Source of the DNA: Anaerolineae bacterium
GTDB lineage: Bacteria > Chloroflexota > Anaerolineae > Promineifilales > Promineifilaceae
NCBI GenBank assembly: GCA_020848035.1
Contig: JADLAX010000027.1
Coordinates: 41,528 to 73,527, forward strand
Direction: 5' to 3'
DNA: 32,000 nt
In this document: positions 5,767 through 30,612 of the stretch, one piece after another
How the letters are laid out: every line of letters starts with the position of its first letter
How positions within the stretch are numbered: position 1 is the stretch's first letter
Position numbers and translations under genes: made by a program
Notes under the pieces: model-generated
Databases searched by the model: none
Told to the model about the DNA's origin: nothing
What the model saw: only the letters and a program-made list of their open reading frames with translations

Positions 5767-7311
5767 TTGGCGATCATTCTCATTACCGGAGCAACCGACG
5801 GCATTGGTCTGGCATTGGCCCAGCAGTACACTTTGGCCAAACACCAGCTGATTTTGGTAGGACGACGGCCGTTTCCCCCCCACCCTGATCCGATGTTCAC
5901 CCCGCAAACCTACTGCCAGGCCGATCTGGCCCAGCCCGATGCCGCCGACACCATTGCCCACTGGCTGGAAAATCAGGGCATTCACACATTAGATTTGCTC
6001 ATCCACAACGCAGGAACCGGCTACTTTGGCGCGCTGGCCGCCCAGCCGCTGGACCAGATTGATGAGCTGCTCACCGCCAACCTGCACAGCCCAATCGCCA
6101 TCACCCACCGGCTGTTTCCCTGGTTGCAAAAGGCGCGGGGCCAGGTAGTGTTTGTCAGCTCGGTGGCGACGGCCGTTCCCACCCCCGAATACGCCGTCTA
6201 TGGGGCCAGCAAACTGGCGCTGGAAGGCTTTGCCCGCAGCCTGCGCGTGGAATGGCAGGGGCAGGTAACGGTGCAAACGATCCGGCCTGGGGCAACCCGC
6301 ACCGGAATGCACCAAAAAATCGGCCTGACCCAGGCACAAATGAATTGGGAAAAGTTTGCCCCGGCGGAAAAAGTGGCCCGCCAGATAATCCGGGCCATTG
6401 AACAGAAACGGCCGTCAGCCACCATCGGCTTGGGCAATCAATTGCTGCGCTTTGTGGGCAGAAACGGCCGTGTCCTGCTCGATCCTCTCCTACGCAGAAG
6501 AGCCACACCGCTTACCAGCCAGCCGACCAGGGCCAGCGCCGCGCCCATCTGCCTCATCACCGGGGCCGCCGACGGCATTGGCCGAGCGCTGGCGCTGCGT
6601 TATGCCCAGGCGGGCTATCACATCATTGGGCTGGACGTTGACGGCACCAAAGCGGCCCACACGCGAGCCGAGATCGTCGCCCAGGGCGGCCAGGCGGAAT
6701 TTATCCTGGGGGATTTGAGCAGCCGGGCCGAATTGGCCGCCATGCTGCCCCAACTGGCTACGCTTGGCCCATTCAGCTGCGTCATTCACAACGCAGGCAT
6801 CAGCGCCGTGGGGCGTTTTGAGGCGCTGCCACTGGACCGGCAGCAGGCGGTGCTGCACCTCAACTTGCATGCCCCGCTCTGGCTGACGGCCGAACTGTTC
6901 CGGCAAAAGTGGCTCATGCCGGACGCCCGCTTTATCTTCTTATCGTCGCTGTCTTATTTTGCCAGCTACCCGGGGGCGGCGGTCTATGCCGCCAGCAAGG
7001 ATGGCCTGGCCAACTATGCGCGCAGCCTGCAAGCCGCCTGGCGCGGCCGCTGCCTCACCGTGTTCCCTGGCCCGGTACGCACCGCCCACGCCCGCCGCTA
7101 CAGCCCAGACAACAGCCGGGAAGACGGCCGTATGCCCCCCGAAACGCTCGCCAACGCCATCTTCCGCGCCGAACAGGCAGGCAAATCCCGCCTAATTCCT
7201 GGCCCAGCCAACAGAATTATGGGATTCGCAGGTCATCTTTTCCCCGGCCTGCTGGAAATGGGGATGAAAAAGGTGATTTTGGAGAAGTTGGAGGAGAAGG
7301 TAATTGCGTAA
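5767..7311 (+). CDS. Tandem (double) short-chain dehydrogenase/reductase fusion protein
   Basis: Two complete SDR modules are present. Module 1 has ILITGATDGIG, HNAGTGYFG and YGASK. Module 2 has CLITGAADGIG, HNAGISAVG and YAASK. The start is moved from 5701 to the in-frame TTG at 5767, which has AGGAG (5756-5760) 6 nt upstream and gives the usual short SDR N-terminus. Confidence 0.85.
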   Translation: MAIILITGATDGIGLALAQQYTLAKHQLILVGRRPFPPHPDPMFTPQTYCQADLAQPDAADTIAHWLENQGIHTLDLLIHNAGTGYFGALAAQPLDQIDELLTANLHSPIAITHRLFPWLQKARGQVVFVSSVATAVPTPEYAVYGASKLALEGFARSLRVEWQGQVTVQTIRPGATRTGMHQKIGLTQAQMNWEKFAPAEKVARQIIRAIEQKRPSATIGLGNQLLRFVGRNGRVLLDPLLRRRATPLTSQPTRASAAPICLITGAADGIGRALALRYAQAGYHIIGLDVDGTKAAHTRAEIVAQGGQAEFILGDLSSRAELAAMLPQLATLGPFSCVIHNAGISAVGRFEALPLDRQQAVLHLNLHAPLWLTAELFRQKWLMPDARFIFLSSLSYFASYPGAAVYAASKDGLANYARSLQAAWRGRCLTVFPGPVRTAHARRYSPDNSREDGRMPPETLANAIFRAEQAGKSRLIPGPANRIMGFAGHLFPGLLEMGMKKVILEKLEEKVIA

Positions 7312-7328
7312 TTTGTAATTGGGCAATT
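7298..7328. repeat. Left arm of a 31-bp imperfect inverted repeat (28/31) bracketing the low-GC lipoprotein gene
   Basis: aggtaattgcgtaatttgtaattgggcaatt compared with the reverse complement of 7978-8008, aagtaattgagtaatttgtaattgggtaatt. The arm is built from GTAATTN words at spacings of 8, 7 and 8 nt and contains the SDR stop codon (7309-7311). Confidence 0.8.
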
Positions 7329-7849
7329 TATTGAGGCAAAAAGTCAAAACTGTCGATGATTGCCTCAGCAGCTTTCTCTGGCTCATACCCATCACCAATG
7401 GTAAAAATGACAGCCATCCGGTCTGAATTTTGGATCACGATTGTGTAAATTTCCATTTCGAAAGGAACATTGGCGGCTTGGATAATGTAAAAAGCAGATG
7501 CAATATCATATTTTGCGTGCTCGTAGGTGGACATTTGCACTCCGCTCAGAAGCTCTATATCTTTTAAATATTCATCAACTTGAAGTTGCACAGAATCAAC
7601 GGCCGTAGCCGCAGAAACCTCATCAAACACACGAATCCAAATCGTAACATCACCTTGTTCTTTTGCGTTAAACCAAACACCTTCATCTGGTTCACCCTGA
7701 TAAGGCTCCCAATAAGTTGGATGATTGATCGTAAAGCCCAAACTGGAATCGGTGTAAGTTTGATATCGCTGACATGCTGACAATGAAAAAAGCAGCATCA
7801 GCAAGAATACAAGAGGCTTCCGAACAAACTTTGGCACGAGTTTTTCCAT
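7328..7849 (-). CDS. Hypothetical lipoprotein (low-GC gene)
   Basis: 173 aa. Signal peptide with a lipobox (LLMLLFSLSAC). GC is about 40% in the two 60-nt stretches I counted, against about 60% in the flanks. No recognisable domain. Confidence 0.7.
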   Translation of the reverse strand: MEKLVPKFVRKPLVFLLMLLFSLSACQRYQTYTDSSLGFTINHPTYWEPYQGEPDEGVWFNAKEQGDVTIWIRVFDEVSAATAVDSVQLQVDEYLKDIELLSGVQMSTYEHAKYDIASAFYIIQAANVPFEMEIYTIVIQNSDRMAVIFTIGDGYEPEKAAEAIIDSFDFLPQ

Positions 7850-7881
7850 CGTCGGCGACTAGCTAGCAGAATTTTTCATCG

Positions 7882-7898
7882 GCAGATTACACAGATTT
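7882..7898. repeat. 17-mer GCAGATTACACAGATTT, identical copy at 23276-23292
   Basis: Exact 17/17 identity between two spacers 15 kb apart. Each copy is upstream of a minus-strand gene start, preceded by TTTTTCAT and embedded in AGATTT/AAATCT word repeats. Confidence 0.8.
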
Positions 7899-7977
7899 GA
7901 CAGATCTTTTAATCTTTTTAATCGGCGAAATCTTTGTTTTTTCTGGAAACTCATCCCCAATTTCTGGGCACCAACCC

Positions 7978-8008
7978 AATTACCCAATTACAAATTACTC
8001 AATTACTT
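7978..8008. repeat. Right arm of the 31-bp inverted repeat bracketing the low-GC lipoprotein gene
   Basis: aattacccaattacaaattactcaattactt. It contains the recN stop codon (8003-8005). See the left arm at 7298-7328. Confidence 0.8.
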
Positions 8009-9770: not shown

Positions 9771-9820
9771 GGAGATGGGAGGGTGGGAAGGCAAAAGTGA
9801 AAAGTAAAAAGTGAAAAGTG
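9771..9820. repeat. Phased heptamer array (7 units), purine-rich on the plus strand
   Basis: ggagatg ggagggt gggaagg caaaagt gaaaagt aaaaagt gaaaagt, located in the recN-upstream spacer. Confidence 0.8.
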
Positions 9821-10762: not shown

Positions 10763-11593
10763 TTATCGTGAGTGACCTAAGCGGCCCATGAGCCGCCGGT
10801 AAAAATAGCCCGAACTTTCCACGCGGGCAAATTTGCAGCTGTTTTCCGACTTGGTCACCAGCACCACATCCTCATCCTCCAGCAAAATACCGTCGGTGCC
10901 GTCGGGCGTCAGGTAAGCGTGGTGATCCATATGCACCGTGATCGCAATTTCAGCCTGCTCGTGAAAAATAATCGCCCGATCAAAGGTGAGATGGGGAGCA
11001 ACAGGCACCACCACAAAGTTGGGCAGCTGGGGCGGCAAGAGCGGCCCGCCAGCGGCCATCGAATACGCGGTGGAGCCAGTGGGCGTGGCCACGATCAGGG
11101 CATCGGCGGTGTAGTTGGTGACGTGATCGCCATCCACATGCAGCTGAAAACGCACCACGCGGGCCTGACGGCCGCGTCCCACCACCACGTCGTTAAGGAC
11201 AGAGAAGGTATGCAAGATACGGCCGTTGCGCCGAATCCGCGCCGCCAGCATCAACCGGTTTTCCGTCCAAAAATCACCTTCCAACAACCGGGTCAGCTTC
11301 TCGGGCCAGTCATCAGGCTGGGCCTCGCTTAAAAACCCCACCCGCCCCAGGTTGATGCCAAAAATGGGCACATCTTCCACACAGGCGTAGCGCGCGGCGC
11401 GCAGCAGCGAACCATCACCGCCCAGCACAACCAGAAAGTCGCTACCGTGTACCAGTTGCCCCATGCGTGCCTCGTCGTAGGAGGAGCCAATCCAGGCGGT
11501 AACGCCGCGTTGGGTCAGCCAGGTCTCAATTTCCACAGCCAGCGGCTGCGACTCGGCCACCTTGGGGTGATGGAGAATGCCAATTCGTGTCAT
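10763..11593 (-). CDS. nadK: NAD(+) kinase
   Basis: 276 aa. GGDGSLL motif (FLVVLGGDGSLLRAAR), NDVVV, and TPTGSTAYSMAAGGP, the canonical NAD kinase motifs. Confidence 0.93.
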   Translation of the reverse strand: MTRIGILHHPKVAESQPLAVEIETWLTQRGVTAWIGSSYDEARMGQLVHGSDFLVVLGGDGSLLRAARYACVEDVPIFGINLGRVGFLSEAQPDDWPEKLTRLLEGDFWTENRLMLAARIRRNGRILHTFSVLNDVVVGRGRQARVVRFQLHVDGDHVTNYTADALIVATPTGSTAYSMAAGGPLLPPQLPNFVVVPVAPHLTFDRAIIFHEQAEIAITVHMDHHAYLTPDGTDGILLEDEDVVLVTKSENSCKFARVESSGYFYRRLMGRLGHSR

Positions 11594-11598
11594 AGATG

Positions 11599-11630
11599 GG
11601 ACACTGATTTACACTGATTTACACTGATTT
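11599..11630. repeat. GG + three perfect tandem decamers ACACTGATTT; left arm of an inverted bracket around the GxxExxY gene
   Basis: ggacactgatttacactgatttacactgattt. The reverse complement of 12051-12089 reads ggacactgattgacgctgataaacactgatatttgattt. The first 11 nt are identical and overall identity is about 27/32. Confidence 0.8.
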
Positions 11631-11642
11631 GGGGATGCATTT

Positions 11643-12038
11643 TCAACCTTTTAGGTTTGGTTTTCTCGCATTATCGAATATTTTGCGTTTCTTGGTAGCT
11701 GACGGCCCGAAGTTTAACAGTAGTCCTACTTCAAATGGCGTTGCCTTTAGATAATTTAGCAACTGCGCTTCATGTATCGGCAGCAAGCTCGCCACGGCCT
11801 TAAGCTCCACAATAATTTTGTCCTCAATTAACAAATCGGCAAAATACTCTCCTACAACTTCTCCACGATAATAAACCTGAATTGGTGCTTGCTGCTGCGC
11901 CTTTAGGCCTCTCGCCCGTAACTCTATTGCCATTGAGTTTTCGTAAACTCGTTCAAGAAAACCGTAACCCAGGCTGTTATAAACAGCGTAAAAAGCATCA
12001 ACGATTTGCTGCGTTACGTCCTGGTGTTTGTATTGCAT
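11643..12038 (-). CDS. GxxExxY family protein (PD-(D/E)XK nuclease-fold superfamily)
   Basis: 131 aa. It has the eponymous motif GFLERVY (LGYGFLERVYENSMAIEL) plus ADLLIEDKIIVELKA, a D...E-x-K-like core. GC is about 43% in the stretch I counted. Confidence 0.85.
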   Translation of the reverse strand: MQYKHQDVTQQIVDAFYAVYNSLGYGFLERVYENSMAIELRARGLKAQQQAPIQVYYRGEVVGEYFADLLIEDKIIVELKAVASLLPIHEAQLLNYLKATPFEVGLLLNFGPSATKKRKIFDNARKPNLKG

Positions 12039-12050
12039 ATAACACTCTGC

Positions 12051-12089
12051 AAATCAAATATCAGTGTTTATCAGCGTCAATCAGTGTCC
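12051..12089. repeat. Degenerate inverted copy of the ACACTGATTT decamer array (right arm)
   Basis: aaatcaaatatcagtgtttatcagcgtcaatcagtgtcc. It abuts and overlaps the hisS stop codon by 1 nt. Confidence 0.75.
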
Positions 12090-13354
12090 TATTTCTTCAA
12101 ATACGCAAGCACGTCGGTGAGTTTGACCAGGGTTTGCTCGCCGCCGTCTAACGGCCGTACCATCACCGCCCCCTGCTCCAGTTCCGCTTCACCCACGATG
12201 AGCACCGTCTGGATGTCGTGTTTGTTGGCTTCGCGCATCTGGCTTTTCATGCTGCGCTTATCGCGCGAGAAGGCCAGCCGGGCACCAATGCCCGCCGCCC
12301 GCAGTTGGAAGGTAAGCTGAACGGCCGCTTCCTTCGTAGCCCCACCAAAATGGGCCACCAAAACGGTCGGCTGCGCCGGTGCGAGCGGCGCGATGCCTGC
12401 TTCCTGCATGCTCAACACAATGCGCTCGATGCCGCTGCCAAAACCCACACCCGGCGTCGAGGGTCCGCCAATATCTTCCGCCAACCCATCGTACCGACCG
12501 CCGCCGCAAACGGCCGCTTGCGCCCCAATGCCCTCGGCCCACACTTCAAACACCGTCTTGGTGTAATAATCAATGCCGCGCACCAGGCGGAAATTGATGC
12601 TGTAACTCTGATCCAGCGCGTCCAGCAGCCCCCGCAGGTCGGTAAAATGGGCTTCACAGTCGTCACACAAGGAATCAATAATGTGCGGCGCATCGGCCAG
12701 CAGGACCTCCATGCCTGGCTCTTTGCTATCCAGCACCCGCAGCGGATTGCGCTGGATGCGCTCTTTGTCGATGTCAGCCAGCTTGTCCAGGTGCTGGGCC
12801 AGATATTCGGTGAGCTTTTGCACGTAAGCCGGTTTACACACCGGGCAGCCGGTGCTGTTGAGCTGGAAGGTCAGCCCCTGGAACCCCAGCGAACGGTACA
12901 GATTCATCGCCAGCATCATCACTTCCACGTCGGCGGCGGGATCGACTTCGCCCAAAATTTCGCAGTTGAACTGGCTGTGCTGGCGGTAACGCCCGGCCTG
13001 CTGCCGTTCGCGGCGGAAGGCCGGGCCAATGGTGTAGAGCTTCACTGGCTGCGGCCAGCTGCTCATGCCGTTCTGGATGTAGGCGCGCATAAATCCGGCC
13101 GTAAATTCCGGCCGCATCGTTAGCGTTACCCCCTCGGACTCTTCCAGGGTGTACATCTCTTTTTGCACAAAAAAGTCGGAACCTTCCCCCACACCGCGCT
13201 GGTACAGCTCGGTGTATTCCAGGATGGGTAAGTCGATGCGCTGGAAACCGTAGCGGTGGGCCAATTCGGTCGCCTTTTCGGTAATCAGGTCCCAATAGCG
13301 GCGTTCTTCCGGCAGGACATCCTGCATGCCCTTGGCGCGTTGTATTGCTGTCAA
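12089..13354 (-). CDS. hisS: Histidine--tRNA ligase
   Basis: Class II aaRS HisS motifs are present (RGMQDVLPEE, FRRERQQAGRYRQHSQF, GGGRYDGL). The ORF track start is a TTG at 13432 with no SD. The in-frame TTG at 13354 is preceded by GGGAGG 5 nt upstream and gives the normal HisS N-terminus (TAIQRAKGMQDVLP). Confidence 0.93.
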   Translation of the reverse strand: MTAIQRAKGMQDVLPEERRYWDLITEKATELAHRYGFQRIDLPILEYTELYQRGVGEGSDFFVQKEMYTLEESEGVTLTMRPEFTAGFMRAYIQNGMSSWPQPVKLYTIGPAFRRERQQAGRYRQHSQFNCEILGEVDPAADVEVMMLAMNLYRSLGFQGLTFQLNSTGCPVCKPAYVQKLTEYLAQHLDKLADIDKERIQRNPLRVLDSKEPGMEVLLADAPHIIDSLCDDCEAHFTDLRGLLDALDQSYSINFRLVRGIDYYTKTVFEVWAEGIGAQAAVCGGGRYDGLAEDIGGPSTPGVGFGSGIERIVLSMQEAGIAPLAPAQPTVLVAHFGGATKEAAVQLTFQLRAAGIGARLAFSRDKRSMKSQMREANKHDIQTVLIVGEAELEQGAVMVRPLDGGEQTLVKLTDVLAYLKK

Positions 13355-23218: not shown

Positions 23219-23275
23219 TGCACGCTCCTGTCATGTGAGGAGAACAGTTTTCGAAGTTTTTCATGCACAGATTTC

Positions 23276-23292
23276 GCAGATTACACAGATTT
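23276..23292. repeat. Second copy of the 17-mer GCAGATTACACAGATTT
   Basis: Identical to 7882-7898. It lies 58-74 nt upstream of the zinc-ribbon gene start (23218) in a spacer rich in AGATTT/AAATCT words. Confidence 0.8.
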
Positions 23293-23412
23293 TCTGCTTA
23301 AATCTGCCAAATCCTTTAAATCTTGGATTGTTTGTAGCCAATCAAAAAGATTGTAGCGCAGGGGCGGGCTTGATTCAATCGGGTTTTTGTGGGGAAATGT
23401 GGCCTGCCAAAC

Positions 23413-26124: not shown

Positions 26125-26247
26125 GATGGAAGAAGGAAGAAGGAAGAAGAAAAAGTGAAAAGTAAAAAGTAGACGTTCACCTACCACTTTTGACTTATCA
26201 CTTTTCACTAATCACTTCACTCAATCCTCTCTCACTTTTAACTCACT
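26125..26247. repeat. Inverted pair of phased heptamer arrays (7 purine-rich units, then 10 pyrimidine-rich units)
   Basis: gatggaa gaaggaa gaaggaa gaagaaa aagtgaa aagtaaa aagtaga (26125-26173), then cacctac cactttt gacttat cactttt cactaat cacttca ctcaatc ctctctc actttta actcact (26178-26247). It ends 16 nt before the UPF0182 ATG. Confidence 0.82.
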
Positions 26248-26263: not shown

Positions 26264-29170
26264 ATGAGTCGTGACAACTGGGACATCCCAGAAGTGTTTC
26301 GCCGGGCTATGGAAGAGGCCGGCTGGGAAGGCAATAAAGGTGAGGGCAATGAAGGGGGCGAAGGCGGCGGTCAGCGCCCGCCCATTCCCAATCGCCCAAC
26401 ACAGCCGGGCCGCAGCAACCGCAGTTGGTGGATCGTTGGCATTCTCTTTTTGTTGTTCATCAGCCTCAACTGGATAGTGGGGGTTTATACCGATTGGCTC
26501 TGGTTCAACGAGCTAAATTACCAGAGCGTCTGGCTAAAGCGCTGGAGCTACCAGCTGGGCAGCTTTATCGCCTTTTTTCTAGTTGCCTTCCTTATTTTCT
26601 GGGGCAACTGGCGGCTGGCACGCCAGCGGGCTATCAAGGCCACCCCGCCGTTTTACCCGCGTTTTCTGCAAATCCGCGGCATCCCCTGGCTCATGAGTGG
26701 CGCGGCCCTTTTGTTGGCCTTTGGCTTTGCCAGCTCTATTGCCGTGCGCTGGGACGAATTTCTGCTTTTTCTCAACCGCGTACCTTTTGGCACGGCCGAT
26801 CCCATCTTTGGCCGCGATATCAGCTTCTATCTGTTTGAGCTGCCCGTCTACGAGGCGCTGCAGCAGTGGGCCAGCTCCTTGCTGCTGCTGACGCTGCTGG
26901 GCGTGCTGGCCATTTACGCTGTGAACAACATCGTTGATATTCAGCGGGGCAAGTGGCGGCCGCAGGAATCGGTAATTTTGCGGCAGCATGTGGCCCTGCT
27001 GGCGGCACTGATTTTGCTGCTGTGGGCTGTAGGCTACCTGTTCCAGATTTTTAACCTCAACTATTCACCCCGTGGGGTGGTGTTTGGGGCCAGCTACACC
27101 GACATGAACGCGACGATCTATGCCCTGTATGCCCAAATGGCCTTCATGGGGCTGGCGGCGCTGGTGATGTTGTTTAATGTCTTTCGGCTGAGTTTACGGC
27201 CGTTGCTCCTCATTGGCGCTCTCTGGCTGGCGGCCACAGTGTTGCTGGGTGGCGTCTATCCCGCTATCTTACAGCGGTACGAAGTGGAACCCAATGAACT
27301 GGTGCGCGAGACACCCTACATCCAGTACAACATCGAATTTACCCGCCTGGGCTTTAACCTGGACAAGATTGAAGTACGCAACTTCAGCGAGGTTGATACC
27401 CTAAGCCAGGGTGACGTTACAACCAACAGCGCCGTGTTGTCGAACATTCGCTTGTGGGATTATCGGCCATTACAGCTTACCTTCACCCAATTGCAGGCGT
27501 TACGGCCGTATTACGTCTTTGGTGAAGTCGATATCGATCGCTACGAAATTGACGGTGAAATCCAGCAAGTCATGCTGGCCGCCCGCGAACTCGACAAAAG
27601 CAAGCTATCTTCCCTCTCCTGGGTCAACGAAAGGCTGGAATTCACCCACGGCTATGGCATCGTCATGAACCCCGTCGACCGCTTTACCACCGACGGCCAG
27701 CCCGAATTTTTCATCAAAAACCTGCCGCCAGAGAGTGAAATCCCGCTGCAAGTTACCCGCCCCGAAATCTACTACGGCGAATTCACCAATGACGAGGTGT
27801 TTGTTGGCAGCGCCCGCGAAGAGTTTAGCTACCCCAGCGGTAACGAAAACGTCTACTCCAGCTACGAAGGCAGCGGCGGTGTACCGCTCGACAACTTCCT
27901 CAAACGCATAGCCTTTGCCCTCCGCCTCGGCGACGCCAACGTCCTGCTCAGCGATGAAATCAACACCCAAACCCGGGTGCAAATCCACCGCCAGATTCAG
28001 GAACGGGTGCGGCTGCTGACCCCCTTCCTGGCCCTGGACAGCGATCCCTACGTGGTGCTCACGAATGATGGCAACCTCATCTGGGTGCAGGATGCCTTTA
28101 CCTACAGCAGGCGTTTCCCCTACGCGACACCCAACAGCATCCTGCCCAACAGCGATATTCCCGGCGAGCTTGCCAATATTAACTACGTGCGCAACGCCGT
28201 TAAAATCACCATTGATGCCTACAACGGAACCGTCAACTACTACGTTGTGGACGAACAAGACCCCATCATCCAATCATACAGCCGTGCCTTCCCTGGTCTC
28301 TTTAAGCCGTTCAGCGAAATGCCGGAAAATCTGCAAAACCATCTACGCTACCCGGAAGATTTGTTCACCATTCAGGCGCAGCAATACCTGCGCTACCACA
28401 TGACCGACGTCCGCGTTTTCTTCAACCAGGAAGACGTGTGGCAAATCCCGCAAGAGGTGTATGAAGGCAATCAGCAGCTAATGGAGCCGTACTATGTCAT
28501 CATGCCGCTGCCTGGGGAAACAGAAAGTGAATACTTACTTATCCAACCGTTTAACCCCACCGGCAAAGACAACATGATCGCCTGGATGGCCGCCCGCAAC
28601 GATCCCGCCAACTACGGCCAGTTGGTGATGTATGAACTGCCCAAGCAGGAGCTTGTTTTTGGCCCGATGCAAATCGAAAGCCGCATCAACCAGGATTCCT
28701 TCATCTCGCAGCAGTTTGCCCTCTGGGATCAGGGTGGCTCCAACGTGCTGCGCGGCAATCTGCTGGTGATTCCTCTGGGCAACAGCTTTTTGTACGTGGA
28801 ACCCATCTACCTGCAAGCCTCAACCAGCGCTCTGCCCGAACTCAAGCGGGTGATCGTGGCCACCGATACCCGGATCGCCATGGATTTGACGCTAGACCGG
28901 GCCTTAACGGCCCTGCTGGCCGCCGAGCCGGGCGAAATTACGCCTGAGCTTGAAGGGCTGGAAACGGCCGAAGATCCAGTACCCGAACCAACTACACCCA
29001 CCATCCCCACTGCCCCGCTTGATGCCTCCGTGGAAGAGCTGATCGCCTCGGCCAACGCCCACTTTGAAGCGGCTCAAGCAGCCCAGCAAAGCGGCGATTG
29101 GGCCACCTACGGCGCTGAATTGAAAGCTCTGGAAAGTGACCTGGCCCGGTTAATGGAACTGACGGAGTAG
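26264..29170 (+). CDS. UPF0182 family large membrane protein
   Basis: 968 aa. Gly/Glu/Pro-rich N-terminus, about 7 TM helices, then a large soluble region with UPF0182-typical stretches (YIQYNIEFTR, LWDYRPL, LRPYYVFGEVDIDRY, LIQPFNPTGKDNMIAWMAA). Confidence 0.88.
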   Translation: MSRDNWDIPEVFRRAMEEAGWEGNKGEGNEGGEGGGQRPPIPNRPTQPGRSNRSWWIVGILFLLFISLNWIVGVYTDWLWFNELNYQSVWLKRWSYQLGSFIAFFLVAFLIFWGNWRLARQRAIKATPPFYPRFLQIRGIPWLMSGAALLLAFGFASSIAVRWDEFLLFLNRVPFGTADPIFGRDISFYLFELPVYEALQQWASSLLLLTLLGVLAIYAVNNIVDIQRGKWRPQESVILRQHVALLAALILLLWAVGYLFQIFNLNYSPRGVVFGASYTDMNATIYALYAQMAFMGLAALVMLFNVFRLSLRPLLLIGALWLAATVLLGGVYPAILQRYEVEPNELVRETPYIQYNIEFTRLGFNLDKIEVRNFSEVDTLSQGDVTTNSAVLSNIRLWDYRPLQLTFTQLQALRPYYVFGEVDIDRYEIDGEIQQVMLAARELDKSKLSSLSWVNERLEFTHGYGIVMNPVDRFTTDGQPEFFIKNLPPESEIPLQVTRPEIYYGEFTNDEVFVGSAREEFSYPSGNENVYSSYEGSGGVPLDNFLKRIAFALRLGDANVLLSDEINTQTRVQIHRQIQERVRLLTPFLALDSDPYVVLTNDGNLIWVQDAFTYSRRFPYATPNSILPNSDIPGELANINYVRNAVKITIDAYNGTVNYYVVDEQDPIIQSYSRAFPGLFKPFSEMPENLQNHLRYPEDLFTIQAQQYLRYHMTDVRVFFNQEDVWQIPQEVYEGNQQLMEPYYVIMPLPGETESEYLLIQPFNPTGKDNMIAWMAARNDPANYGQLVMYELPKQELVFGPMQIESRINQDSFISQQFALWDQGGSNVLRGNLLVIPLGNSFLYVEPIYLQASTSALPELKRVIVATDTRIAMDLTLDRALTALLAAEPGEITPELEGLETAEDPVPEPTTPTIPTAPLDASVEELIASANAHFEAAQAAQQSGDWATYGAELKALESDLARLMELTE

Positions 29171-29239
29171 ATGAGGGATAAAGGATGAGAGATGAGGGAT
29201 GAGAGATGAGGGATGAGGGATGAAGTGGGAGGTGAGAGG
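29170..29239. repeat. Ten-unit phased heptamer array GATGAGR
   Basis: gatgagg gataaag gatgaga gatgagg gatgaga gatgagg gatgagg gatgaag tgggagg tgagagg. It starts at the last base of the UPF0182 stop codon. Confidence 0.85.
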
Positions 29240-29316: not shown

Positions 29317-30132
29317 TCATTTATCAAAATGAATTTCAGCAGGTTTGGCATAGCCCAACGACAAATGTGGGCGGTCGTAGTTGTACAGCCAAACCGCTTC
29401 GGCCACAGCCTGTTGCGCGTGCGCCACATTGACAAACAGGTCATCAAGACCATACTCGTTCTTTAAAATGCCGTTCATACGTTCGGCCAAAGCGTTGTCG
29501 TAGCAGTTGCCTACCTCACCCATGCTGGGTAGCAAGCTGTGCTCTCTGAGGCAATCACGGTACGGCCAAGAAGTGTATTGCACGCCATGGTCGGAATGAT
29601 GGACCAACCCGGCCACCGGACAATGGGCCTGGTTGATAGCCAGCTGCAAAGCACGCAGGCAGCCTTCCGTGGCCAAAGAGGTAGAAATATCATAACCGAC
29701 AATAAAGCGCGAAAAGGCATCGGTCAGCAGAGCCAGATAGACAAAGCCCGTTTCCGTCGTGATGTAGGTGATGTCACCAACCCACGCTTGATAGGGAGCC
29801 TCCAACGTCAATTCCGCCAGACGATTGGGGCAACGCCAGGAGCCAGCTAAGGTGGTTCGCCGTTGATTCCGCTTGGGGACAATCAGTAACTCATGGGCGC
29901 GTAGCAGGTTAAAAAAAGCATCTCGACCACGGGTAATCTCCAGGTTTCCCCAGCAGGGCCGCAGTTCATGATACAGCTTGCGTCCTCCCATCTGGGGATG
30001 GAGCCGCCGTTTTTCTTTGACCAAGTCCAGGAGGATCTGGTTCTCAGCTTCCTGTTGCTGCTGTCGCTGTTTGGCTTGAAAGTAGGCTTGACGGCTGATG
30101 TCAAACCAGGTCACGGCGGCTTGAGTCGTCAC
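29317..30132 (-). CDS. IS3-family transposase OrfB (DDE/rve integrase domain)
   Basis: WVGDITYITTETGFVYLALLTDAFSRFIVGY (first D), HSDHGVQYTS (second D), NCYDNALAERMNGILKNE (E). The frame is -1 relative to orfA, so the natural product is probably an OrfAB fusion. Confidence 0.9.
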   Translation of the reverse strand: MTTQAAVTWFDISRQAYFQAKQRQQQQEAENQILLDLVKEKRRLHPQMGGRKLYHELRPCWGNLEITRGRDAFFNLLRAHELLIVPKRNQRRTTLAGSWRCPNRLAELTLEAPYQAWVGDITYITTETGFVYLALLTDAFSRFIVGYDISTSLATEGCLRALQLAINQAHCPVAGLVHHSDHGVQYTSWPYRDCLREHSLLPSMGEVGNCYDNALAERMNGILKNEYGLDDLFVNVAHAQQAVAEAVWLYNYDRPHLSLGYAKPAEIHFDK

Positions 30133-30155
30133 TTGGTCGGCTTGCCGGATATGGT

Positions 30156-30521
30156 CTATGATTTCTTGCCGAAATTTTTTTTAAGGTCTAGGCGCAACGC
30201 TTCACTGGCCACCGTGAGTGTCGCTTCCAACATGCGGTTATCCAGGGTACTTTGAGCCAGGGCTGATTCCAACTCGGCGACCCGTCGTTTGAGTGCTTTG
30301 AGCCCCTCCTGGTCTTCGGCTGTTTGGATGACTACCAGCTCGGCACGGTAACCAAAACGGCCGTATCGTTCGATCCATCGTTGCACGGTGAGATGCGACC
30401 CGATACCGTATTTGTCGCGCAAGCTGTAAATGCTGGCCCCGGCTTCATATTCACGCACAACTTGTTGCTTGAAGGCCAGGCTGTAACGTCTGACGGTTTC
30501 TTTTTTCATAAGGTTGCCCAT
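30156..30521 (-). CDS. IS3-family transposase OrfA (HTH)
   Basis: 121 aa. RRYSLAFKQQVVREYEAGASIYSLRDKYGIGSHLTVQRWIERY HTH region plus a leucine-zipper-like tail. The alternative start is the ATG at 30509. Confidence 0.88.
   Translation of the reverse strand: MGNLMKKETVRRYSLAFKQQVVREYEAGASIYSLRDKYGIGSHLTVQRWIERYGRFGYRAELVVIQTAEDQEGLKALKRRVAELESALAQSTLDNRMLEATLTVASEALRLDLKKNFGKKS
30175..30182 (-). other. A8 slippery run: candidate programmed -1 ribosomal frameshift site of the IS3 transposase
   Basis: The minus strand reads CTT AAA AAA AAT near the end of orfA. The orfB frame is exactly -1 relative to orfA (first-base coordinates are 2 mod 3 for orfA and 0 mod 3 for orfB). Confidence 0.7.
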
Positions 30522-30572
30522 CCTAAAGGGTAATTATATCTGTCAACTATATTTAGGACGGGTCAGGTCATT

Positions 30573-30612
30573 CACTTCTCACTTCTCACTTCTCACTTTT
30601 TACTTCTCACTG
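30573..30612. repeat. Phased heptamer array CACTTCT (about 5.5 units)
   Basis: cacttct cacttct cacttct cactttt tacttct cactg, directly after the IS3 right end and 7 nt before the DinB-family ATG. A remnant, tttcacttctcattttt, lies on the other side of the IS (29254-29270). Confidence 0.85.

Follow-up and report, generated by a model that had tools for sequence, protein, structure and literature searches.

The hisS–nadK locus

Within the 32,000-nucleotide (nt) window analysed here, which is the whole stretch taken from an Anaerolineae bacterium of the Promineifilaceae (Chloroflexota), a gene of the GxxExxY family lies between hisS and nadK, enclosed by inverted arrays of a short word. The inserted block occupies 495 bp (11594–12088, minus strand) and is delimited by comparison with the empty hisS|nadK junctions of relatives and by its GC content, 0.43–0.45 against ~0.60 in the flanks. 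The upstream neighbour hisS (histidine-tRNA ligase; 12089–13354) is given the start of the 421-aa gene calls in strain contigs, with the longest open reading frame (ORF) reaching 13432, and the downstream neighbour nadK (NAD kinase; 10763–11593) is translationally coupled to hisS in relatives; all three genes are on the minus strand. The single ORF between the arms (11643–12038, minus strand) encodes a predicted 131-aa minimal RecB/Cas4-like PD-(D/E)XK nuclease.

The downstream, nadK-proximal arm (11596–11630) consists of ATGGG followed by three perfect copies of ACACTGATTT pointing inward on the plus strand, the GG and the three units spanning 11599–11630, and its ATGGGAC end lies 2 nt from the nadK ATG. 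On the gene strand, the upstream, hisS-proximal arm (12059–12092, minus strand) reads ATAGGACACTGAT TGACGCTGAT AAACACTGAT, three inward units that fit the consensus AAT-D-GG-ACRCDGAT ×3, and its outermost base is shared with the hisS stop codon TAG (12089–12091). The reverse complement of 12051–12089, GGACACTGATTGACGCTGATAAACACTGATATTTGATTT, starts with the same 11 nt as the left flank. A repeat search paired the arms as 11596–11628 and 12060–12092 (33 nt each, 85% complementarity, 431 nt apart), and Tandem Repeats Finder gave a period of 10 in both arrays. The window has five exact copies of the 8-mer ACACTGAT, every one inside the two arrays. Measured from outer word to outer word, the element is 487 bp long (family median 527 bp). 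A T-rich leader of 20 nt (ATTTGATTTGCAGAGTGTTAT; 12039–12058, minus strand) with a weak Shine–Dalgarno-like GCAGAG joins the inner unit to the ATG; across the family the median leader length is 27 nt, and GGAG, GAGG or AGGA is present in 27 of 67. The earlier note, made from the letters of this DNA, had described three perfect units on the left, an inverted right flank with 11 identical nucleotides and a lone low-GC GxxExxY gene of 131 aa between nadK and hisS, and each of these descriptions agrees with the sequence, the ORF and its profile matches.

The first codons of nadK (11583–11593, ATGACACGAAT) are themselves word-like: ACACGAAT is one mismatch from ACRCDGAT, and L001, one of the related loci described below, has ATGACGCGAAT. 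The resemblance may mark a target-like site or may be coincidental.

The GxxExxY protein

The 131-aa protein matched TIGR04256 at 142.1 bits (cut-off 35, E = 9e-42) and PF13366 (PDDEXK_3) at 143.8 bits (cut-off 22, E = 4e-42). Among 33 homologous sequences G26, E29, Y32, D68, E78 and K80 are invariant or nearly so, and E29, D68, E78 and K80 are invariant together with the RecB-family motif Q92xxxY96 (Q92-L-L-N-Y96). The AlphaFold model, with a predicted local distance difference test score (pLDDT) of 85, has a minimal alpha-alpha-beta-beta-beta-alpha-beta nuclease core. Foldseek returned modest matches in the PDB, with template modelling (TM) scores of ~0.5, to Cas4 SSO0001 (E = 8e-4, TM 0.52), lambda exonuclease, the AdnAB nuclease domain and tRNA-splicing endonucleases; a sequence search of the PDB gave no match. 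Having no cysteine in its 131 aa, the protein is not a Cas4, an assignment that we rejected also on context: Cas4 has a four-cysteine Fe–S cluster and a cas neighbourhood, and the neighbours here are hisS and nadK. The enzyme looks intact, active and selected.

The family comprises 26,861 clusters at 50% identity (E ≤ 1e-3). Some members (P0121–P0125 and others) are 250–277 aa long and carry two tandem GxxExxY domains, fusions which suggest that the enzyme works as a dimer. The window holds one copy, and several metagenome-assembled genomes (MAGs) contribute two loci. A 2012 survey of PD-(D/E)XK proteins has an entry for PDDEXK_3 as "Unknown, multiple transfers" (PMC3424549). PADLOC and PHROGs yielded no match to the protein, nor did a tblastn search of the INPHARED phage collection, and the two peptide patterns used on IMG/VR found no relative there. 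Literature searches on GxxExxY, PDDEXK_3, PF13366 and TIGR04256 turned up incidental mentions only, and we found no paper describing the arrays; the cassette and its phased-word system appear to be undescribed so far.

Insertion and loss at the junction

A search based on hisS retrieved 80 related loci from Promineifilaceae/Ardenticatenales MAGs (best 94% aa identity), which identifies the source of the window as a Candidatus Leptofilum-like Chloroflexota organism; across these loci the order hisS–nadK–tetratricopeptide repeat (TPR)/B-box membrane protein–recN is kept. The distance from the hisS stop to the nadK ATG is only 0–3 nt in L001, L002, L004, L005, L007, L010 and L042, relative to which the window has 495 additional bases (11594–12088). 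Because hisS abuts nadK in these closest relatives, the block is an insertion, in agreement with the proposal of the earlier note that the gene is foreign; the comparison of the junction in relatives that it had called for thus finds most close relatives, and the closest of all, without any spacer.

Other relatives retain parts of the element. L003, sister of the window lineage on a neighbour-joining tree of hisS, has TAGGAC-TCAGTGTCCCAT, written TAATAGGAC-TCAGTGTCCCATTT, which is exactly the window element minus everything between GGAC and TCAGTGTCC and reads as an exact internal-deletion footprint of the cassette. In L009 only the ends remain (CCAGTGTCCCAC), and in L006 the ends ATAGGAAC...AAATCAGTGT...CAGTGTCCCAT surround 290 bp of other material. 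L008 has a left arm, GGACACTGATTTACGCTGATAAACACTGG, with the window-type ACGC middle unit and a gene 78% identical, after which the contig switches context. This change coincides exactly with the cassette, and the arrays are likely break points of metagenome assembly. The shared details of the arms speak for a single old insertion with repeated later loss or recombination, and against many independent hits.

At the level of strains, 16 contigs encoding proteins 98–99% identical always have the gene at hisS|nadK with invariant flanks. Their genes differ from the window copy by 10–12 substitutions, of which 8–9 are synonymous and 2–3 non-synonymous, indicating purifying selection on the GxxExxY protein. 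In two contigs (L283 and L288) the upstream arm lacks one 10-nt unit and has two instead of three, from which it follows that the arrays change by unit slippage. On this comparison of sequences, the cassette is fixed in this species and deleted or decayed in sister lineages.

Two side observations concern the same locus. Within the L006 remnant, ~100 nt of GC-rich, apparently structured sequence (7255–7365 of that locus) gave no significant Rfam match. Near position 5950 in L004, L008, L010 and L030, a two-unit reverse array (e.g. CACAGAGGACGCAGA) stands just 5′ of the hisS start, so the hisS locus bears family words on its other side as well.

A conserved word at both ends of GxxExxY genes

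We fetched 80 loci with homologues of the window protein (56–69% identity) and scored 78 genes (56–78% aa identity), whose hosts include Anaerolineae, Planctomycetota, Bacteroidota, Nitrospirota, Acidobacteriota, Desulfuromonadales, Ignavibacteria, KSB1 and others. Alignment of the 150 nt upstream with the reverse complement of the 150 nt downstream gave a median local score of 31.5, compared with ~15 for shuffled flanks, and the aligned arms were nearly always of one sequence kind, exemplified by ATGGGACGCGGATGAACGCGGATGAACGCGGAT, GGACACGGATGAACACGGA and GGACGCTGATAAACGCTGAT. Within 300 nt upstream, the core ACRCNGA had 214 forward matches, and within 300 nt downstream it had 198 reverse ones, where ~11 were expected in each case; its density is 8.8 per kb in the flanks and 0.89 per kb in the background. 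Both flanks have words in 65 of the 78 genes, and at least one flank has them in 77.

Reading inward from each side, the consensus is an outer AAT-D-GG|ACRCDGAT| and then inner (G/A)A|ACRCDGAT units, most often three per side (3+3), with 121 spacings of 10 nt and 30 of 9 nt. Position N of the core is virtually never C (2 of ~320 flanking words), and no strand asymmetry of the variable position D was found. Among the phyla with words around GxxExxY genes are also Chloroflexota, Desulfobacterota, Spirochaetota and Gemmatimonadota.

More distant homologues (33–53% identity) on replicons of cultured organisms have such words as well. Gemmatirosa kalamazoonensis (NZ_CP007129.1) carries a full ACGCGGAT hairpin, Bacteroides finegoldii (NZ_OY725952.1, L323) has radA|GxxExxY with inverted ACRCDGAGG ×3, and Treponema saccharophilum has a single unit on each side of its GxxExxY gene; a Fusobacteria bacterium plasmid bears a distant homologue with such words, and in Sphingomonas parapaucimobilis (NZ_CP155749.1, L324) words of the ACGCGAAG type are present on the upstream side only, in the arrangement fabD|GxxExxY|fabG. 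The Sphingomonas and Bacteroides genes are co-oriented within or after housekeeping genes (fabD|fabG and radA), which matches hisS|nadK.

The suggestion of the earlier note that GxxExxY genes sit in inverted word arrays and may travel as cassettes is thereby extended: inspection of the flanks of other copies, as it had proposed, gave the same architecture in 65 of 78 homologues, so the arrangement is more general than had been imagined. The same count bears on chance resemblance between two AT-rich flanks. Allowing one mismatch, the 8-mer is not significantly enriched in the window (22 found, 14.7 expected), a point in favour of chance; the five exact copies all fall in the arrays at 10-nt spacing, and together with the recurrence of the pattern they refute this explanation, to which we attach practically no probability.

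Two loci show unusual layouts. L081 (17–756) has at least four tandem duplications of the left end of a cassette, at a period of 80 nt. In L089 (2337–3139) a hairpin, a cassette and a second hairpin follow one another at a spacing of 11 nt, a layout which suggests that elements insert beside one another.

The word variant follows the protein

Where two proteins were at least 78% identical and no homology was detectable between their 1.35-kb flanks, the word variants agreed at 1.00 for position R and 0.88 for position D, and pairs below 70% identity agreed at ~0.55 and ~0.40, respectively. None of 2,000 permutations reached the observed strength of this link between protein and word. As protein identity predicts the word variant at unrelated sites, the arrays either travel with the gene or specifically match it. 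A single MAG may moreover hold cassettes of differing variants (L083/L088, L091/L134 and L111/L146), and the two observations together imply that the arrays are not a property of the host genome.

Agreement between the two arms of one element, compared with arms of different elements, was 0.87 versus 0.47 at R, 0.67 versus 0.30 at D and 0.77 versus 0.40 at T7, and units inside one arm share R and D (0.79). For the 2-nt spacers the corresponding values were 0.47 and 0.42, that is, no agreement beyond background. The same pattern was seen in 44 gene-less hairpins (R, 0.79 versus 0.48; spacer, 0.49 versus 0.41). Because the arms agree at word positions and not in the spacers, protein-binding sites are favoured over a base-paired stem. 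What is conserved and homogenised is an 8-mer at helical phase, as would be expected of repeated protein-binding sites, and this argues for binding rather than pairing.

These values also bear on an explanation at the level of RNA, in which the arms would form a long interrupted helix in the hisS–GxxExxY–nadK transcript, and an RNase III-type processing or insulating stem, like those of rRNA intervening sequences, would excise or buffer the gene. RNAfold does pair the arms over 11+8+8 bp, closing the whole gene (z = −5.6), and such a stem would place the hisS stop codon beside the nadK start codon; across loci, the cassette has the orientation of the upstream gene in 45 of 60. Pairing alone, however, needs neither a fixed 8-mer nor a 10-nt period, A/T swaps at D between the arms create mismatches, spacer complementarity is at background while the word is kept across phyla, and no locus lies in rRNA. 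We consider a primary role of the stem in RNA quite unlikely.

Gene-less hairpins and solo arrays

An unbiased scan with the three-unit pattern GGACRCNGATNNACRCNGATNNACRCNGAT, covering one genome per species, returned at least 119 loci. The counts that follow are among the matches listed, which include archaea (ANME-1 and Halobacteria), Fischerella, Anabaena, one complete betaproteobacterial genome and many Desulfobacterota. An inverted partner was found for 59 of the 136 arrays with enough flank, and 54 of these 59 partners are no more than 200 nt away, which makes a hairpin with no room for a gene. The remaining 77 of 136 lack a good partner within 2 kb, a further point against a function through pairing in RNA. 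The sole protein family that recurs beside the arrays at different loci is GxxExxY.

The window has two gene-less hairpins of this kind. One (23266–23324, plus strand) has period 9 and reads CACAGATTT CGCAGATTA CACAGATTT, a loop and AAATCTGCC AAATCCTTT AAATCTT. The other, of the period-9 subfamily (7881–7936, plus strand), reads GGCAGATTA CACAGATTT GACAGATCT ... TTAATCTTT TTAATCGGCG AAATCTTTG and lies inside a further hairpin, of the word GTAATTG, next to recN. L006 has two copies that align with these hairpins, and one of the two lies in its hisS–nadK spacer. Rfam 15, run on the window, the cassette region, the L006 spacer and 18 hairpin loci, gave nothing at gathering score over an array or hairpin; two weak sub-threshold matches in the L006 spacer (E = 0.21 and 0.38) were taken as chance.

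The abundance of gene-less hairpins raises the alternative that the hairpins are primary and pre-date the gene, GxxExxY being a homing-type nuclease gene that copies itself into loops with its cognate word. Gene-less hairpins far outnumber gene-bearing ones, the gene is invariably between the arms, the L089 elements cluster 11 nt apart, hairpin loops elsewhere in the clade take other insertions, and the link between word variant and protein would suit cognate recognition equally. At hisS|nadK, however, no lineage has an intact gene-less ACACTGAT hairpin: the gene-less states are footprints or decayed ends, and the closest relatives have zero spacer. Homing into pre-existing hairpins is therefore unlikely, in our assessment, as the origin of this cassette.

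Arrays also occur on 24 IMG/VR contigs. On one of them, IMGVR_UViG_3300033991_000115 (L297 and L312), at least five solo ACGCGGAT ×3 arrays are each followed by a CGGAAGGA-like sequence, most with a start codon nearby, and a regulatory use in a phage is possible. More generally, the arrays could be operator or iteron-like sites in cis for the nuclease gene or its neighbours, with no role in mobility. Three phased sites ~20–30 nt upstream of the start codon would fit such a function, as would the viral solo arrays, each preceding a Shine–Dalgarno-like sequence and a start codon. Against it, the downstream side of the gene has an equal array in inverted orientation, and a scan of the flanks on the gene strand found no promoter-like or terminator-like match. 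Nor are solo arrays clearly oriented: with crude ORF calls, they showed no bias relative to neighbouring ORF starts (39 versus 35) and at most a weak one relative to the end of the upstream gene (45 versus 25; p roughly 0.02 by estimate). Since regulation in cis would also leave presence/absence polymorphism and gene-less hairpins unexplained, we hold it to be improbable as the function of the arrays.

Three specific candidates for the words were considered and rejected. A sigma-70 promoter in the array (TTGACG...TATTTG) would have a spacer of only 14 nt; a mini-ORF, ATG-GGA-CRC-DGA-TGA, has its ATG in only ~40% of ends; and a DnaA box is excluded by a match of 6 of 9 positions between TTATCCGTGT and TTATCCACA, with mismatches in the essential CACA.

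Other arrays in the window and its relatives

Arrays of unrelated words are found elsewhere in the window. Just after recN, inverted GTAATTG arrays (7300–7328 and 7978–8006) enclose a 173-aa secreted or lipoprotein-like protein (7328–7849) without a Pfam match. AAAAGTG is repeated four times at 9793–9820, between recN and the TPR/B-box gene, and at 26128–26217 GGAAGAA ×3 and AAAAAGT ×3 face six CACTTTT-type units in a gene-less hairpin of a different word. These two sets of arrays are reminiscent of the short tandemly repeated repetitive (STRR) sequences of cyanobacteria. An IS3-family element (29317–30521; orfA with HTH_Tnp_1, 30156–30521; orfB with rve, 29317–30132) lies between AGATGAG ×10 (29169–29238) and TCACTTC ×6 (30572–30611). 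In relatives, the hisS–nadK spacers of L014, L015 and L017 contain gene-less inverted arrays of unrelated words (GTGTCAGG; CAATCTG; and TAGTGATC with CAAACACY), indicating that intergenic word-array hairpins are habitual across the clade and do not depend on the GxxExxY word. The window also contains 60 copies of the palindrome ACGGCCGT, where 0.64 would be expected, mostly in coding sequence (e.g. 8016, 12151 and 26050), so that this Chloroflexota genome has a hyper-iterated palindrome of the HIP1 kind; none falls in the 495-bp cassette, where ~0.9 would be expected, a difference that is not significant.

The hairpin at the 3′ end of recN is orthologous among relatives. It encloses the lipoprotein-like gene in the window and in L002, is gene-less in L003 and, in L006, has nothing but a CAGATT-word hairpin inside it. 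Together with the footprint at hisS|nadK, the gene-less hairpin of L003 implies that this lineage lost the interior of both array-bracketed islands, and both islands are evidence for gain and loss of DNA between inverted arrays.

The earlier note had suggested for the recN island (7298–8008) and the GxxExxY island, despite their unrelated words, one mechanism by which this genome installs or stabilises small foreign genes between inverted arrays. In that model the clade fills its intergenic DNA with hairpins of arbitrary short words, the ACACTGATTT arrays being one of them, and small genes land in such hairpins or are stabilised there. The gene-less arrays in L014, L015 and L017, the recN hairpin with and without its gene, and the IS3 element between its AGATGAG and TCACTTC arrays are all in keeping with it. 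However, one class of word accompanies GxxExxY genes across unrelated phyla and goes with the protein rather than with the host; cassettes of different variants can share a genome; and the junction is free of any hairpin in the nearest relatives. Foreign insertion and bracketing by inverted arrays thus survive from that proposal. The arbitrary, genome-specific word and mechanism do not, because ACRCDGAT is conserved across phyla and its variant tracks the protein at unrelated sites; nor does the shared mechanism of the two islands, GTAATTG being an orthologous recN hairpin that is gene-less or has other content in relatives. As an account of the GxxExxY cassette, we give the local-hairpin model little credence.

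Proposed model

The explanation towards which we lean, if only somewhat, is that 11594–12088 is one copy of a widespread ~0.5-kb nuclease cassette with its own phased-word ends, and that the nuclease acts on these words. The arrays would then be conserved ends belonging to the cassette, not words peculiar to this genome, and the cassette would have entered hisS|nadK in an ancestor of this Leptofilum-like lineage (Promineifilaceae, Chloroflexota). The six phased words may be binding and/or cleavage sites of the encoded nuclease, with the three at each end lying on one face of the helix, one turn (10 bp) apart, like multi-site transposon ends. We infer from the sequence patterns that the nuclease recognises the words and drives the spread or maintenance of cassettes and hairpins; it would thus mobilise or maintain both the gene-bearing cassette and the far commoner gene-less hairpins and solo arrays.

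Several observations weigh against this model. A test for target-site duplications of 2–5 nt at all offsets in 88 elements recovered only the palindromic AT of the inverted repeat itself, and the cassette has no recognised transposase or recombinase, its sole ORF being the PD-(D/E)XK nuclease with matches only to PF13366. Under the strict pattern, ~13 of the 78 genes have no words on one or both sides. The GxxExxY gene is present in only about 4–5 loci of the 136 scanned arrays, again among the matches listed; with so few arrays enclosing the gene, they could depend on another, unlinked factor. The predicted pairing of the arms as RNA is a further such point. Finally, the copy in the window looks old and vertically inherited rather than recently mobile, to judge from the 16 strain contigs with the same site and the derived arm feature shared with L008.

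A broader generalisation, which we offer tentatively and think somewhat doubtful, is that GxxExxY/PDDEXK_3 proteins are the dedicated nucleases of mobile or self-maintaining phased-ACRCDGAT repeats across phyla, in bacteria, archaea and possibly phages, and that they would constitute a new prokaryotic superfamily of repeat plus nuclease, transposon-like or REPIN-like, whose enzyme is a minimal RecB-like PD-(D/E)XK nuclease. A DNA partner defined in sequence, six phased 8-bp words whose variant tracks the protein, makes an unannotatable gene a testable system. If true, the model would explain why GxxExxY genes are multi-copy, horizontally scattered and wedged inside operons, and it would define, outside current RNA and repeat libraries, a widespread class of hairpins and arrays in intergenic DNA.

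Comparison with known systems

An integron cassette was rejected, as equivalent arrays stand on both sides and the flanks are the housekeeping genes hisS and nadK; an integrase was not looked for in the rest of the window. The intervening sequences of 23S rRNA resemble the cassette in having a small ORF inside inverted repeats able to form a long stem in the transcript. They differ in location, the cassette lying in an mRNA operon and not in rRNA, and the ORF family classically tied to them is a four-helix-bundle protein. This identity was rejected: universal 23S/16S motifs gave only scattered chance matches, and there was no Rfam match in the window. Cyanobacterial STRR heptamers are likewise short tandem intergenic words in filamentous bacteria, to which the AAAAGTG, AGATGAG and TCACTTC arrays of the window are similar; they form longer runs of 7-mers without a gene, whereas ACRCDGAT occurs as three units at 10-bp phase, in inverted pairs and with one protein family.

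Free-standing homing endonuclease genes resemble the cassette as very small selfish nuclease ORFs lodged between conserved genes, in many cases with the orientation of the operon (hisS|nadK, fabD|fabG, radA|...), and patchy among relatives. Unlike the cassette, they have no bracketing inverted arrays, and their families are LAGLIDADG, GIY-YIG, HNH and some PD-(D/E)XK. Transposons with terminal inverted repeats (TIRs) and miniature inverted-repeat transposable elements (MITEs), among them Mu, Tn7, CACTA/En-Spm and eukaryotic Foldback elements, have ends composed of several phased short protein-binding words; in Foldback elements the TIRs are built of short tandem repeats. Their short non-coding derivatives exceed the coding copies, and presence/absence polymorphism and related copies at unrelated sites are common to both. 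The cassette differs in having no DDE, serine or tyrosine transposase, no detected target-site duplication, a length of only ~0.5 kb and a protein of 131 aa.

The best reading, by analogy, is a selfish cassette in which a RecB-like minimal nuclease and its cognate repeats parallel the repetitive extragenic palindromic (REP) sequences and REPINs with their REP-associated tyrosine transposases (RAYTs). In RAYT/REP–REPIN systems too (PMC3686654), a short repeat stands in inverted copies around a small nuclease gene and is scattered, without the gene, in far greater numbers, many of these copies being inverted pairs that form intergenic hairpins; there is no target-site duplication, and the locus described here is likewise long-lived and vertically inherited. 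The differences are that RAYTs are HUH/Y1 (IS200/IS605-like) transposases and not RecB-like PD-(D/E)XK nucleases, that their repeat is a single imperfect palindrome instead of three phased 8-mers per arm, and that they are mostly single-copy and proteobacterial, whereas GxxExxY genes are hugely multi-copy across many phyla. The cassette nuclease would thus stand to its words as RAYT transposases stand to REP/REPIN, with an unrelated nuclease fold doing the work, and, if true, would provide a second, independent case of this type of nuclease–repeat relationship.

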